Source of the DNA: Eledone cirrhosa
Lineage: Eukaryota
DNA length: 64,000 nt
Assembly: GCA_964016885.1 (NCBI GenBank)
Contig: CAXHJY010000079.1
Coordinates: forward strand, 159,096-223,095
Direction: 5' to 3'
Both the position numbers and the translations under genes were made by a program. Below are positions 2,836 to 63,684 of the stretch, in pieces. The notes beneath the pieces were generated by a model. The model searched no databases, was not told the origin of the DNA, and saw nothing but the letters and a program-made list of their open reading frames with translations. Each line of letters starts with the position of its first letter. Positions within the stretch are counted from its first letter, which is position 1.

Positions 2836-3029
2836 AAAAGAGTCAGGACCCCGACGGCTGAGCTCCGGCCGTTTCGACAGTTAGATCAGTTCAGATCTAG
2901 ATGTCGAAACGGCCGGAGCTCAGCCGTCGGGGTCCTGACTCTTTTCCTATTACCCACTCTACTACCCAAAGTATTGAGTACTTTGGTGCGTTATGGTCCA
3001 CCTGGTTCCTTACCACACTTTCTTTGTTA
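2836..3029 (+). mobile_element. PLE terminal fragment family B with fold-back inversion and HHR 3' half
   Basis: ~45 bp perfect inverted repeat (GAAAAGAGTCAGGACCCCGACGGCTGAGCTCCGGCCGTTTCGACA and its complement); GAAACGGC..GCCGTC-GGGG as in the Naiad HHR at 52019; flanked by (TA)n. Confidence 0.8.
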
Positions 3030-3049
3030 TATATATATATATGTTTTGT

Positions 3050-3278
3050 TTGTCGTTGTTACAGCTCACACCTATGCACGTTTAGCTGGTCTCCTCCAAG
3101 GTATATCTCGTTAGAGGTGTCTTGGGTGATTTAATGATAGGGACCCCAGTCTTATGTTCTCATTTCTACAGATGAGTAAACTGGAGCAACGTGAAATAAA
3201 GTGTCTTGCTCAAGGAAACAACACATCACCCGGTCCGAGAATTGAAGCCCAATGCTCTAACCACCAAGCCATGCGCCT
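3050..3278 (-). mobile_element. SINE family D, alternative tail type
   Basis: Reverse complement of the family D head and core; tail shared with 9730-9975. Confidence 0.8.
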
Positions 3279-5797
3279 TACACACACACACACACACACA
3301 CACACACACACACACACACACACATATATAATTGCATAGATATAGTGAAGCATTCTGAGATAGGTAATAAATAACAGAGTTTTGTGAAAGGTGGTACCAT
3401 GTATATAGAAATGTCTAGATCATTATTTCCTTCTCCCCCCCTCCCTCTGGAAGAAATCAACAATATCCTAGCCTGGAATAAGATGCCAGGTTTAAATATC
3501 AGAATGACGCCTCTATCATTCAATTAGCAGAAAATATATAAAAACAAGTTTCTTAATTCAAATGCTTATAGTATATTTAAAGGCGGACAGATTGTTGTGA
3601 CAATATGCAGTATTAGAGTAAAGACATTAATTTGTAATGTGGTACAATCGTAATGCAGTTTTGTCTCCTGAATATGGCTTCATGTGGAAGAGTATGTTAA
3701 GAGCTAAGGCTCCATTCAGATATAGATGTGTGTATTTATTATATAAGATTATTATGCTTACCTTAAATGCTTAAGATTATGTTGTTAAATAAAAACAACA
3801 TTCCATTTAGTAAAACGTCCAATGATCTTCAGGTGTGACAAATACAGGAGGCAGGAAGGAAGAAAAGAAAAAAAAAGAAGAGAAACAATGAAGCAGAGAA
3901 TAAAACCGTGTCAAAGGTGAAACATACAAAATATAGGAATTTTCAATAACTCGGAAGAATAAATAGACATAGGTAGAAAGATAAAAGAATGATGAATGCA
4001 GGCTTATACACACACACACATATATATATATATGGATGGATGGATGTATACACACATTTTTGAACACTCAATGATATATATAGGGATATCCACTTTCCTA
4101 CAAAAACAGATTTTACTTTTAATCACATCAACATTGCATTGAGTTCTACAATGGCTATACATCCTATCTCAATTAGATAGAACACCAATGTGTGTGTGTG
4201 TGTGTGTGTGTGTGTGTGTGTGTGTGTGTGTATATATATATATATATATATGAATTAACAAAAGAAGAGTGGAGGAACTGCGTGTGTCACATCATATAAT
4301 AATTGTTTTTACTTTTGGCACAAGGCCAGCAATTATTCCAGTACATTACTGGTACTTTATATCACAGATGATATTATAATATTGACAACATGACATGCAC
4401 AATACTGCCCGGTCATTGGTCATCAAAATGGACACACACAGACTTGACCTCCACCGATTTCAGTGCTGGTCAATCCCGGACCACAATGTCTAACCAGTTA
4501 ACCAAACATTGACATTAAACGACCAAGACGAAACAAGACTAACGTAACGTGTGTAGATTGAAATGTAGGACATCTATATATGTCCAAAATATTACATAAA
4601 CGACCTGCGAAACACGGAGACCAAGACACACACACATAGAGAATGTGACACTCAGAGAGGAAATATTTGATTGCTTTTAACCATCACAAGATGGTTTGGA
4701 AGACATACACACCTTTACGCTCCTAACAGTGATGTTAGCTTTGTTATGGTCTGATGCACATATCCTGGCAGCTTTGCACTGACAAACACACGTCCTCTCA
4801 AAATACATAAGGATTATTTCTCTTTCAAAACCACTCTCATATCGGAGATACCTTTTGACCTGAACATTCTAAAAAATGGCTAACTAAACAGATACATACT
4901 TTTTCCTTCTCAACGATGTATGTGAGGGTTTGTATCTTTTTTCTGTTTGTGTCTTATGTTTCTCTATTCTATCTTCAGTCATTAAATTACGGATTTTATT
5001 CCGGATCAGTAGGACATACTCCTTTAGGAAAGCCCCCTGTACTGATAGGAACTGTATCGTTGGTAAGATAAGCCCACAGATAAACTGTAAAACTAGAAAT
5101 GTAGTTATCAGCATGCTAAACTAGAACACGACGGCTCAATAGATAACAGAAATAAGGATCCTATTCACACACAGAACTGGCGCAACATTCAGACAAATTA
5201 TGGAGGCCACACACATAACAGAAGATAGTCATAGCCTGAATAGAACACATGAGTGGAATAGTAACAGTCCGCAACTTAATGACTGGAGAGAGAGAGAGAG
5301 AGAGAGAGAGAGAAAAGACTCAAACGAACCCCCTCAAAACAGAAAACTTGACAAACAGAAAACGCTCGTAGGCGCAGGCGCACACAAATGCGCAGACACG
5401 AAACACACACACGTGCCGCAAAACAAAAACAAGACGGAGTAGAAGTTTAAGATCAGGAAAAAGAAGAGGCACAACAGAGATAATCTTTTAAGAGGTTACA
5501 AAACGTGTGACGAAAGAAACTTTGGCAAACAATTGAATGATTCTTTCTACTTTTAGCACAAGGCCAGGAATTACCGCAGTGTATTACTGGTACTTTATTT
5601 ATCGACCCTGTAAGGATGAAAGGCAAAGTTAAGAAATAAATGAATAATGAACGATAAAGTGAATATAATATGATGCAAGCGTTTCTTTCTATTGGCAACA
5701 TGACAATCCTAATATATATATATATATATATATATATATATATATATATATATGCTGTGTGTGTATATATATATATATATATATATATATATATATA

Positions 5798-5873
5798 TAG
5801 GGTGTCCCCAAAAATGTATACACACTTCAACAGCATTCTAATCAGAGTATGTATATATTTTTGGGGAACACTA
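5798..5873. mobile_element. Tiny Tc1/mariner-like MITE
   Basis: Imperfect TIRs AGGGTGTCCCCAAAAATGTATAC...GTATATATTTTTGGGGAACACT in TA context. Confidence 0.65.
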
Positions 5874-5963
5874 TATATGTGTCCTAAAACGATGATGATG
5901 ATCATAACACACACACACACACACATATATATATATATATATATATATATATACACATATATA

Positions 5964-6054
5964 CAGGGTGTCCCCCCCAAAATGTATACACACTTTGATT
6001 ATATGTACAGGCAATATTTACTTGAATGGTATATACATTTTTCGGGACACCCTG
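5964..6054. mobile_element. Tiny Tc1/mariner-like MITE
   Basis: TIRs CAGGGTGTCCC..AAAATGTATAC / ATACATTTTTCGGGACACCCTG with TA on both sides. Confidence 0.75.
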
Positions 6055-6572
6055 TATATATGTATATATACATACATGTGAGCATGGGAACAGTCCTAAA
6101 AACGATGATCGTGATCATGATAATATATATATACGTGTGTATATATATATATATCGTATATATGTATATATATGTATGTAGGACCATACAGTTTATTGAT
6201 ATAAATATTGAAGCTGCTATACGTAGGTAGCATATAGTGATGACATCTCAGGAGGCAGTTACTACAAGGTTTTACCTAAAGCAAACTGACTGCTGTTTGA
6301 CAGCTGATGACAGCAAACTTGGCTATCTACATCTCTCTCTCTTCTCTCTACCCCCCTCTCTCTATCTATATATATATATAGATAGATATATCTAATGTGT
6401 ATGTACTTACACACACACATACACATATATATATATATATATATATATATATATATATATATATATATTAATATATATATGTGTACGAATGGGTACATAC
6501 ATATATAATGTGTGTGTGTATATATGTTTGTGTGTACACACACACACACACACATATATATATATATATATA

Positions 6573-61858: not shown

Positions 61859-62872
61859 TGTATGTATGTATGTATGTATGTATGTATGTATGTATGTATG
61901 TATGTATGTATGTATGTATGTATGTGTATGTATGCATATATGTGCATACCATTTTTTTTACAAAATTCCCAACACTATATATATATATATATAGTGTGTG
62001 TAATGTGAAGTTACTGTAAATATATATGTATATATATCATCATATATATATCATCATATATATACATATATATCATCATATATATACATATATATCATCA
62101 TATATATATATATATCATCATATATATATATATATTTCATCATATATATATATATATCATCATATATATATATATATATATCATCATATATATATATATA
62201 TCATCATATATATATATATATATATATCATCATATATATATATATCATCATATATATATATATAATGATATATATACATATATATATATGATGATATATA
62301 TGTATATATATATGATGATATATATATATATATATATCATCATATATATATATATATATATATCATCATATATATATATATATATATCATCATATATATA
62401 CATATATATCATCATATATATACATATATATCATTATATATATACATATATATCATATATATATATATATATTATCATATATATACATATATATCATCAT
62501 ATATATATACATATATAACATCATATATATACATATATATCATCATATATATATATGTATATATATCATCATATATATACATATATATCATCATATATAT
62601 ATCCCTGCTAACTTGAGTTGAATGTATCGTCAGTACCTAGTCGTAGCTACTGTCCCCCCAGTCAGAGTAATGAGCCACATCTCATTTGCATAAGCTCCCG
62701 TACTCAACCGAATACACTGGGTACATTTTATCATAGCACCGGCACTAAGAAGGTTGTCATGTCTTTGACTCAGCTGAAGAGTCTTATCAATGATGTCCTA
62801 CCCCTCATCAACCACTTCACAAAGTGCACTGGGTGCATTTATTAAAGGTTGTCATATATATCTTTATTTTAT

Positions 62873-63073
62873 ATAGAAATGACTTCTACAGATATAGAAC
62901 TGTTTCATTCGTATGGAATCATTCAGGAATTTCCTGATGATTTCATACAAGTGAAACAGTTCTAGTCCTGTAGAAGACATTTCTATACAAAATAAAATTA
63001 CTTATACTCTACCATTGTATTGAGTAACTTTTTAAACTGTGTTCACCTTCCGATCTTCATCAGGAATCCACCC
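62873..63073 (+). mobile_element. Family A fragment: inverted HHR pair plus tail; plus-strand HHR (62931-62975) has an intact core
   Basis: TTC-CTGATGA-TTTCATACAAGT-GAAA-CAG-TTCTAGTC-CTG-TA-GAA; tail TACTC..GTATTGAGTA. Confidence 0.8.
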
Positions 63074-63119
63074 ATATATATAAATACACACACACACTAT
63101 ATCTCTATATATATATATA

Positions 63120-63303
63120 GAGGCACATGGCTTAGTGGTTCAATTCTCGGACTGGGTGATGTATTGTTTCCTTGAGCAAGACACTTTATTTCAGCTGTAG
63201 AAATGAGATGATAGGGACTGGGGTCCCTATCATTCCACTGCAAAGTGGTTGTGGACCCCTTGCAAGCAGGGAAAAACAGATGTAAAATGATGATGATGAT
63301 GAT
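63120..63303 (+). mobile_element. SINE family D, internally deleted
   Basis: Head, core and GCAAGCAGGGAAAA..GTAAAATGATGAT tail. Confidence 0.8.
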
Positions 63304-63383
63304 ATATATATATAATATATATATATATAAAATAATAAGTGTAAGTCAAACATGTTAAAGTTGGCTTTGTTTATTCCAATTCG

Positions 63384-63436
63384 CTGTTATACATATTTCA
63401 GTGACAGCCATTATTGGCTGTGACCTCATCAGGCAA
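63384..63436 (-). ncRNA. Minimal hammerhead ribozyme (fifth family), weak stem I
   Basis: Minus: CTGATGA-GGTCACAGCCA-ATAA-TGGCTGTCACT-GAAA-T-ATGT-A-TA; lies in insertion ~63330-63660 with a GTTGAGTGC tail on plus. Confidence 0.7.
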
Positions 63437-63684
63437 TAAGAATTAAGGCAGAAAAAACAGGAAAACATGATGTTGTAATGGGTTCTACTCTGTTAATTCA
63501 TCAATATGTCCAGCTCCTGGATGTGTTGTTAGTCCTCAAAGGAATTGGAATCATATCATTACATTACTCTAGAGTGAACAAACCAACCTGCACACTTTGT
63601 TGAGTGCTCCTACCCGCATACTGAGGTGTTGGTAAACAACCAACACATACTCAAAATTGATATATATATATATATATATATAAA

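Follow-up and report, generated by a model that had tools for sequence, protein, structure and literature searches.

The 64,000-nucleotide stretch of the Eledone cirrhosa genome analysed here (assembly GCA_964016885.1, contig CAXHJY010000079.1, positions 159,096 to 223,095 of the forward strand; hereafter the window) contains short insertions of Penelope-like elements (PLEs) that share a small bulged hairpin. In full-length elements this hairpin proves to be the first of two in the 5′ leader, and insertion ends fall into two sharp classes, each 0-9 nt before one hairpin. The pair probably serves as two docking sites that set the two internal start points of the element's reverse transcriptase (RT) on its RNA; in this model the binding, a protein dimer, the action at the level of RNA and the priming are all putative. 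A role in RT recognition, or as a template boundary, is predicted from evidence that is positional and comparative.

A preliminary description of this DNA had pointed to a conserved ACTC…TTGAGT(A/G)C element near the 3′ end of several insertion families. The pattern ACTC-N4-25-TTGAGT matches the window nine times, against a mean of 1.42 in shuffled sequences, none of 100 of which reached nine, and eight of the matches lie inside short insertions with (TA)n flanks. The ninth, at 58843-58863 (minus), has no element around it and is probably a chance match. Three more copies, longer or degenerate, occur at 63566-63607, 47668-47689 and 34914-34935. The motif is real: the quoted sequences are found on the plus strand at 2956, 25454, 45282 and 63006, the minus-strand copies at 23850-23875, 25206-25223, 26148-26168 and 35233-35258, and the copy placed at 63565-63607 is present in a longer-stemmed form. 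The copy reported near 47668 exists on the minus strand but is degenerate (TCTC for ACTC), and the degenerate one at 34914-34935 (plus) is additional to those first listed. Across the 3.0-Gb genome, to which all genome-wide counts refer, the pattern ACTCY-N5-30-RTWGAGTRC, with 61 trailing places, matches 130,244 times, as compared with 3,536 for the reversed pattern.

The elements that carry the motif are Hydra-clade Penelope-like retrotransposons of related families. The window itself holds one of their open reading frames (ORFs; Table 1), in which (TA)n stands in place of the leader and the first codons. This single ORF contains LRWR, YRDD, HSDKT (DKT instead of DKG), a CxCX5C linker together with CxxC and CxH around a conserved E and N, and a C-terminal AYIG..RLYQH, while the family R protein has RMRWK and SDKT. 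The motifs RW(R/K), DKT, CxCX5C, CxxC and CxH are marks of the Hydra clade (Craig et al., 2021, PMC8557442). Relatives align to the window ORF across its full length, and (TA)n flanks 158 of 195 mapped insertion ends. A Pfam search of the ORF gave no match, and no relatives were found in the viral contigs searched. Assignment to the Naiad PLEs was considered and rejected, as their endonuclease is N-terminal and the one here is C-terminal.

Family B is young, since many of its copies in the genome are identical, with frames open for 784 codons and a tandem spacing of 3.5 kb. In its full-length copies the tail runs on into the leader and ATG of the PLE ORF, and the same continuation is seen in families I, H, K, A and R; the hairpin-bearing leader of family B was present in 24 of 30 loci, the remaining ones being cut or rearranged there, as judged by eye. 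The ORFs of families A, B, H, I and K show 34-56% identity between families and occupy one side of a starred branch opposite 43 metagenome ORFs in a quick, midpoint-rooted tree, which was built from own-genome and metagenome ORFs without the published Hydra proteins. The motif-bearing families, which had been presented as otherwise unrelated, are therefore related, and their non-coding parts have diverged. Judged from these sequences, sharing of the motif is to be read as common descent within one clade under selection rather than convergence among unrelated families.

Full-length copies of families B, I, H, K and R display one leader order: a hammerhead-like core, hairpin 1, a spacer of 55-90 nt, hairpin 2 and the ATG. 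In the B, I, H and K leaders the second copy reads GCTC..TW-GAGC-RC and lies 78-90 nt past hairpin 1, shortly 5′ of the ATG. A twin-hairpin pattern found 853 matches against 22 for a reversed control, with 19 of the first 30 loci coming from one tandem array. Because inserted fragments lose hairpin 2, it was invisible to the preliminary description. In family R, hairpin 1 retains GCTC/GAGC and hairpin 2 has a 65-nt loop, and in its leader at locus L348 the long end of the insertions still falls 0-2 nt before the foot of hairpin 2 in five copies. By eye, the published Hydra-1_Obim leader also has a loop insertion in hairpin 2 (PMC8557442). Family A is a partial exception with a reduced hairpin 2, a GCAC-GTGC stem conserved across subfamilies around a variable loop of 5-6 nt. 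Furthermore, a family picked as an apparent negative carries ACTC-GTCC..GGAC-T-GAGTGC, with a 1-nt bulge, 4-7 nt past its short end.

Insertion ends were mapped for 233 copies against five leader references, after removal of the tandem array L073-L091 and of (TA)n matches to the family H reference. Thirty-eight copies run through and 195 end, 163 of the latter within -2 to +10 nt of a hairpin (69 at hairpin 1 and 94 at hairpin 2) and 32 elsewhere, mostly where a divergent subfamily ceases to align. Among the ends flanked by (TA)n, 152 of 158 are at the two hairpin sites. The short end, seen on the inverted arm, lies 0-8 nt 5′ of hairpin 1, and the long end 3-9 nt before hairpin 2, which only full-length copies keep; ends lie at TA steps, and TA microhomology blurs each junction by 2-6 nt. 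The window insertions illustrate both classes. In the family B mini-insertion the inverted arm, from 2835, ends at the short end, and the direct arm spans hairpin 1 to the long end at about 3027; an inverted repeat at 25293-25454 halts at the foot of the family I hairpin 1, and another, at 62863-62996, stops shortly 5′ of the hairpin 1 that begins at 63006. In addition, contigs from a public DNA run, which may be the assembly's own sample, placed the loose (TA)n ends of family B at 1294 and 1374, where the hairpins start at 1300 and 1378. Contig depth across hairpin 2 of this family went from 1.4 million to 43,000 and then 10,000, a drop of about 30-fold at the bin starting 4 nt before hairpin 2 and of over 100-fold beyond.

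These two end classes support the proposal that the motif is a shared cis signal tied to end formation, with recognition by the RT as a putative function, but the geometry is a different one. The visible hairpin had been assumed to define an end 40-60 nt downstream, whereas it adjoins the short end and the long end adjoins hairpin 2. In the window, 37-61 nt separate GAGT-RC from the (TA)n end, and the separation is 41-61 nt in seven of the eight tail clusters with three or more copies, so the proposed figure is typical, but it is not fixed: medians across 36 genome tail clusters range from 15 to 74 nt, yet measured from hairpin 2 the end is no more than 9 nt away. A ruler based on one hairpin is thus largely refuted by hairpin 2 and has become scarcely credible.

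The motif consists of a lower stem of 4 bp and a variable upper stem and loop, with two bulged nucleotides between the stems on the 3′ side, and an RC that stays unpaired. Its consensus is GCUC-stem-loop-stem-U(U/C/A)-GAGCAC, while hairpin 1 of most own-genome families has ACUC/GAGU. The suggested pairing of ACTC with GAGT is supported by compensatory change, given GCTC/GAGC in relatives, and ACTC/GAGT is a compensatory exchange of A-U for G-C, probably of single origin. In the own-genome set, in which 127 copies were reduced to 36 tail clusters and the search imposed no pairing, the pair above the bulge was Watson-Crick in 32 of 36 clusters (shuffle mean 18.3; 0 of 5000) and the third pair in 28 of 36 (shuffle 12.2). 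In relatives, the pair above the bulge was Watson-Crick in 70 of 77 cases (shuffle 41.6), with C-G in 51, T-A in 19 and other letters in seven. On the protein tree, this pair of hairpin 1 underwent eight changes between T-A and C-G, both letters changing each time, under labels from a descriptor that required Y..R. A strict descriptor with two upper-stem pairs missed many real hairpins (48 matches), and a relaxed form was used instead.

Conservation extends to distant relatives. A scan of metagenome contigs yielded 77 relative loci with 35-43% amino acid identity to the query. The match reached the N-terminus in 57 of them; an ATG in frame was present in 51, and in 36 it was preceded by 170 nt or more. 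Two or more hairpin matches were present in 23 of the 36 eligible leaders (two in 18 and three in five, where the extra ones overlap or look spurious). Hairpin matches numbered 60 in 6,120 nt of leader sequence, compared with 36 in 120,375 nt of ORF and 13 on the reverse strand. With the ATG as the only anchor, GAGCAC was present in 28 out of 34 leaders from distant marine relatives after dereplication (shuffle mean 0.57), and 13 of 17 insertion ends lay -4 to +6 nt from a hairpin once contig-edge rows, microsatellite rows and two run-through tandems were dropped. By eye, the motif or variants of it can also be recognized in published Hydra consensi of coral, sea cucumber, copepod and octopus (supplement of PMC8557442). 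Hydra-1_Ajap begins with both hairpins, Hydra-2_Amil and Hydra-2_Ajap have hairpin 1 about 25 nt short of their end, Hydra-1_Crog has GCCC/GGGC, Hydra-1_Obim has a long loop and Hydra-1_Amil ends before the motif. Among the GAGCAC matches listed for that supplement, five of six lie in Naiad or Chlamys coding-like sequence, outside any hairpin pair.

In these relatives the hairpins are 55-83 nt apart, hairpin 2 ends 13-40 nt before the ATG, and A/T-rich bases lie just 5′ of both. Such placement would also suit a function in leader regulation, in which the hairpins bind for packaging or for translational self-control of the ORF protein and the ends arise from AT-rich microhomology alone. This is very unlikely, as leaders contain many other TA steps and yet nearly all (TA)n-flanked ends (152/158) are at the two hairpin feet, even though the hairpins may be anywhere from 55 to 90 nt apart.

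Head-to-head insertions provide a view of how the two ends are combined. In one family B subfamily, with arms spaced 62-92 nt, the genome-wide count was 16 short+short loci (28 strand hits) against 2,959 short+continuing. Sampled loci comprised 45 long+short pairs, one long+long, one short+short and 31 with an unclassed end. Within the 45 pairs, the short-end arm reached more than 10 nt further 5′ in 14 and the long-end arm in six, and the two were within 10 nt in 25. In the family I insertion at 30440-30643, a 39-nt arm from the long end (30440-30478, minus) faces a longer arm ending at the short end, with no sequence common to the two. Two independent complementary DNAs (cDNAs) are favoured over a single fold-back, because the short-end arm reaches further in 14 of 45 pairs and the arms at 30440-30643 share no sequence. 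A fold-back would involve one priming at hairpin 2, after which the cDNA folds back and hairpin 1 merely stops the returning polymerase. It would explain one long and one short end per insertion as well as the near-palindromic junctions (the 25 pairs within 10 nt), and self-priming has been proposed for Penelope inverted junctions (PMC3846280). An arm made in this way cannot, however, outreach its template on the 5′ side, as the short-end arm does in 14 pairs (six show the reverse), nor would it differ altogether from its partner as at 30440-30643, and a mere stop would not need the sequence and bulge of hairpin 2. Some of the outreaching-arm cases could instead reflect sequence lost at the palindrome centre after insertion; even so, fold-back seems quite unlikely.

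Inserted DNA does not contain hairpin 2, although its end is marked by it, so hairpin 2 must act on the template or an intermediate. This absence, together with the two internal RNA starts of a Poseidon-clade RT, makes twin docking the simplest model. In Poseidon_Ac, reverse transcription begins within the RNA at two sites, one on either side of the tail, and both target strands are extended; the protein is predicted to dimerise (Frangieh et al., 2024, PMC11167929). The likeness extends to where the two starts lie, flanking the tail and 3′ of the hammerhead, to nick sites rich in A and T and to the extension of both strands. Unlike the elements described here, Poseidon_Ac starts inside the ORF in one 'AC-rich stem loop', and no repeated cis signal is defined in the available portions of that report (PMC11167929).

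According to the twin-docking model, the ORF protein, probably as a dimer, would bind both hairpins on one sense RNA, one per protomer, and its endonuclease would nick both strands of the (TA)n target. Each target 3′ end would anneal to a short run of UA/AU located 3-8 nt 5′ of a hairpin; the primed cDNA would extend toward the RNA 5′ end, leaving the docking hairpin itself uncopied. The cDNA from hairpin 2 would include hairpin 1 and the spacer (the 'tail'), that from hairpin 1 would lack the tail, and joining of the two at their far ends would generate an inverted arm and a tailed arm. Short fragments would form when the template is a transcript begun in the pseudo-long terminal repeat (pseudo-LTR) and the RT runs off its 5′ end, and long and tandem copies would come from read-through RNA. 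The 5′ ends of short copies lie 25-35 nt past a TATA-like box in 34 of 72 cases in family B and, weakly, in eight of 44 in family A; the clustering in B hints at run-off from a transcript start. Copies extend across the predicted hammerhead cut, which argues that the template was uncut or re-ligated.

Resolution at the DNA level was weighed as well. Here the RT would copy a longer stretch and the GIY-YIG endonuclease would cut the cDNA or an intermediate at TA beside each hairpin, in line with the ends at TA steps, with wobble counts that do not settle the strand, with the endonuclease-mediated resolution to which Craig et al. ascribe the tail (PMC8557442), and with earlier work, cited by Frangieh et al., in which the tail is required for endonuclease recognition of Penelope DNA (PMC11167929). 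We consider this unlikely, given that in the one reconstituted PLE the two RT starts on RNA match the genomic ends (PMC11167929) and that a common C>T variant of the family B hairpin 2 (L041:1385, a single site) keeps a G-U pair on the sense strand only.

Several observations weigh against the docking model. Most of the mapped loci had been retrieved with hairpin or hammerhead patterns, so the set of ends is a biased one, and the spacing from end to hairpin is not constant, being 0-3 nt at the family I short end and 7-9 nt at the family A long end. Family A, among the commonest, has GCAC-loop-GTGC without a bulge at the hairpin 2 position and yet a sharp long end. Nine of the 36 eligible relative leaders have one hairpin match and four have none. 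At the level of folding, independent pairs restricted to starred branches number only five of five (p 0.0625), single hairpins are weak alone (z -0.1 to -2.5 over 11 tested), the minimum-energy fold of the 2956 copy is another hairpin, and wobble counts leave the strand unsettled (closed G-U 8 vs. A-C 5). Deletions at palindrome centres could blur the evidence for two cDNAs, and clustering of 5′ ends after the TATA-like box is absent in H and I and weak in A. No RNA run was listed as carrying the element, a result that says nothing on expression.

The carrier families had also been labelled hammerhead ribozyme families, a putative assignment based on core patterns. Hammerhead core boxes and stems can be seen by pattern and eye in the pseudo-LTR, but Rfam at the gathering score matched neither the window nor any of the 20 metagenome loci searched out of the 77, and at an E-value threshold the 150 matches listed of 742 were almost all microsatellite-driven microRNA models. 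In the pseudo-LTR at 52007-52112 (minus), the core comprises TTGAGAA (52107-52101), GAAA (52046-52043) and GTC (52026-52024), and the short end lies in (TA)n. Several short copies are truncated beyond the CUGANGA box. A U3-A8 hammerhead variant has been described (PMC4209133). In the family B fold (window 52101-52107, minus; L041), a long stem II holds the TATA-like box, and short copies begin within stem II, so that a transcript from this promoter would lack a complete ribozyme.

Other repeats were encountered around these elements. A tandem repeat of 466 bp, every unit of which has a hammerhead core, forms long, retrozyme-like arrays (L011-L013 and L039-L040; G000:C1:5.73-5.75 Mb); no bulged hairpin was found in it (L011, L039), nor was an autonomous partner. 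As the parent of this repeat was not found, clade specificity of the hairpins is weakly tested. Hairpin 1 of family B plus a few flanking bases makes up a tandem minisatellite of about 58 bp (L073-L091; G000:C1:14.235-14.253 Mb). Fragments of different Hydra families often lie back to back in one (TA)n tract (L339, L340, L263, L099), suggesting that elements have repeatedly entered the microsatellite remaining next to an older copy.

Table 1. Hairpins, insertions and coding features of Hydra-clade elements in the window.
Feature	Position	Strand	Remarks
Hairpin 1, family B (ACTC-TAC..GTA-TT-GAGT-AC)	2956..2981	+	
Whole family B mini-insertion in (TA)n	2835..3027	+	two arms
Hairpin 1, family B	23850..23875	-	
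Hairpin 1, family A-like, minimal upper stem	25206..25223	-	
Hairpin 1, family I, CAG/CTG upper stem	25454..25480	+	long end about 25537
Hairpin 1, family A, TGC/GTA upper stem including one G-U pair	26148..26168	-	
Family I insertion without hairpin 1	30440..30643	.	head-to-head arms
Degenerate hairpin 1 (ACAC..TTGAGTAC), family A-like	34914..34935	+	
Hairpin 1, family B	35233..35258	-	
Hairpin 1, family H, CAA/TTG upper stem	45282..45303	+	insertion about 44936-45370
Degenerate hairpin 1 (TCTC..TTGAGTAC), old family A-like copy	47668..47689	-	
3′ pseudo-LTR of coding family B copy	52007..52112	-	predicted hammerhead-like fold, U3-A8 core
Hydra-clade PLE ORF, RT and C-terminal GIY-YIG endonuclease	53245..55362	-	open 706 codons
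Hairpin 1, family A-like, ends GAGTAA	63006..63027	+	
Hairpin 1 with long upper stem, family K-like	63566..63607	+	

The window also contains an abundant family resembling short interspersed elements (SINEs) with a tRNA-like head (1480-1782, 3133-3279, 9804-9973, 20860-21015, 25586-25704 and 63138-63297) and a second family (6575-6756, 16794-16982 and 63687-63869). TGAGTT matches that are unrelated to the motif come from B-box-like stretches of both families. Fragments of non-LTR 3′ ends, RTE-like by eye, are located at 960-1255 and 12530-12825, a frame at 62555 of the reverse-strand scan resembles an RT C-terminus, and a 374-bp repeat, not classified, has two copies 97% identical (1850-2222 and 61484-61857). 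A splice-site reading, of TTGA/GT or of TACTCAA on the opposite strand, was discarded, as there is no donor consensus and relatives have GAGC.

RNA structures through which an element's own RT chooses its template are known from pairs of long and short interspersed elements (LINEs and SINEs) and from the R2 3′ untranslated region. In those systems the signal is within the copied 3′ end and priming occurs at the RNA terminus, whereas here it is just outside the copied part, in the leader, and twice. In L1 twin priming, two primings give an inverted arm. In telomerase RNA, with its template-boundary hairpin, and in hepadnaviruses, with epsilon, a protein-bound hairpin sets a short template by the RT active site, and the likeness to the present hairpins is one of function only, by analogy. 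PLE RTs are sister to TERT (PMC8557442). The elements resemble the published Hydra clade in their protein motifs, their (TA)n targets, the hammerhead-like cores and the arrangement of arms, which are tandem or inverted with a one-sided tail, but tails measure about 55-90 nt here and 30-40 nt there (PMC8557442). The words 'hairpin' and 'stem-loop' are absent from the main text of Craig et al. (2021, PMC8557442), no such motif is mentioned in the available main text of 10.64898/2026.07.22.740005, and no description of the hairpin pair was found in full-text literature or Rfam, a search lying outside subscription papers, Repbase reports and figures that may bear on novelty. RNA signals for an element's own RT are a known kind, of which twin leader hairpins at both ends would represent a new form.

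Altogether, the hairpin pair bears on template choice by PLEs and on the origin of the one-sided tail with its inverted arm, an open question since the 1990s; the one reconstituted PLE gave two internal starts without any signal to account for them. With a compact RNA motif that recurs across the clade and stands in duplicate, one copy by each end, the question can be put directly to a mutational test. More tentatively, the Hydra clade may use a telomerase-like unit twice, each a docking hairpin with short UA template pairing to nicked (TA)n, such that a bound dimer would prime both strands at once, which would yield the inverted arm, the tail on one side and the preference for microsatellites; other clades might then rely on paired signals of the same kind, and about 100 nt of sequence might suffice as a cassette that directs insertion of any upstream RNA. 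For annotators, the motif gives exact boundaries in a family with about 130,000 marked copies in the genome, and the hairpins offer a possible cis cassette for RT-based insertion tools.

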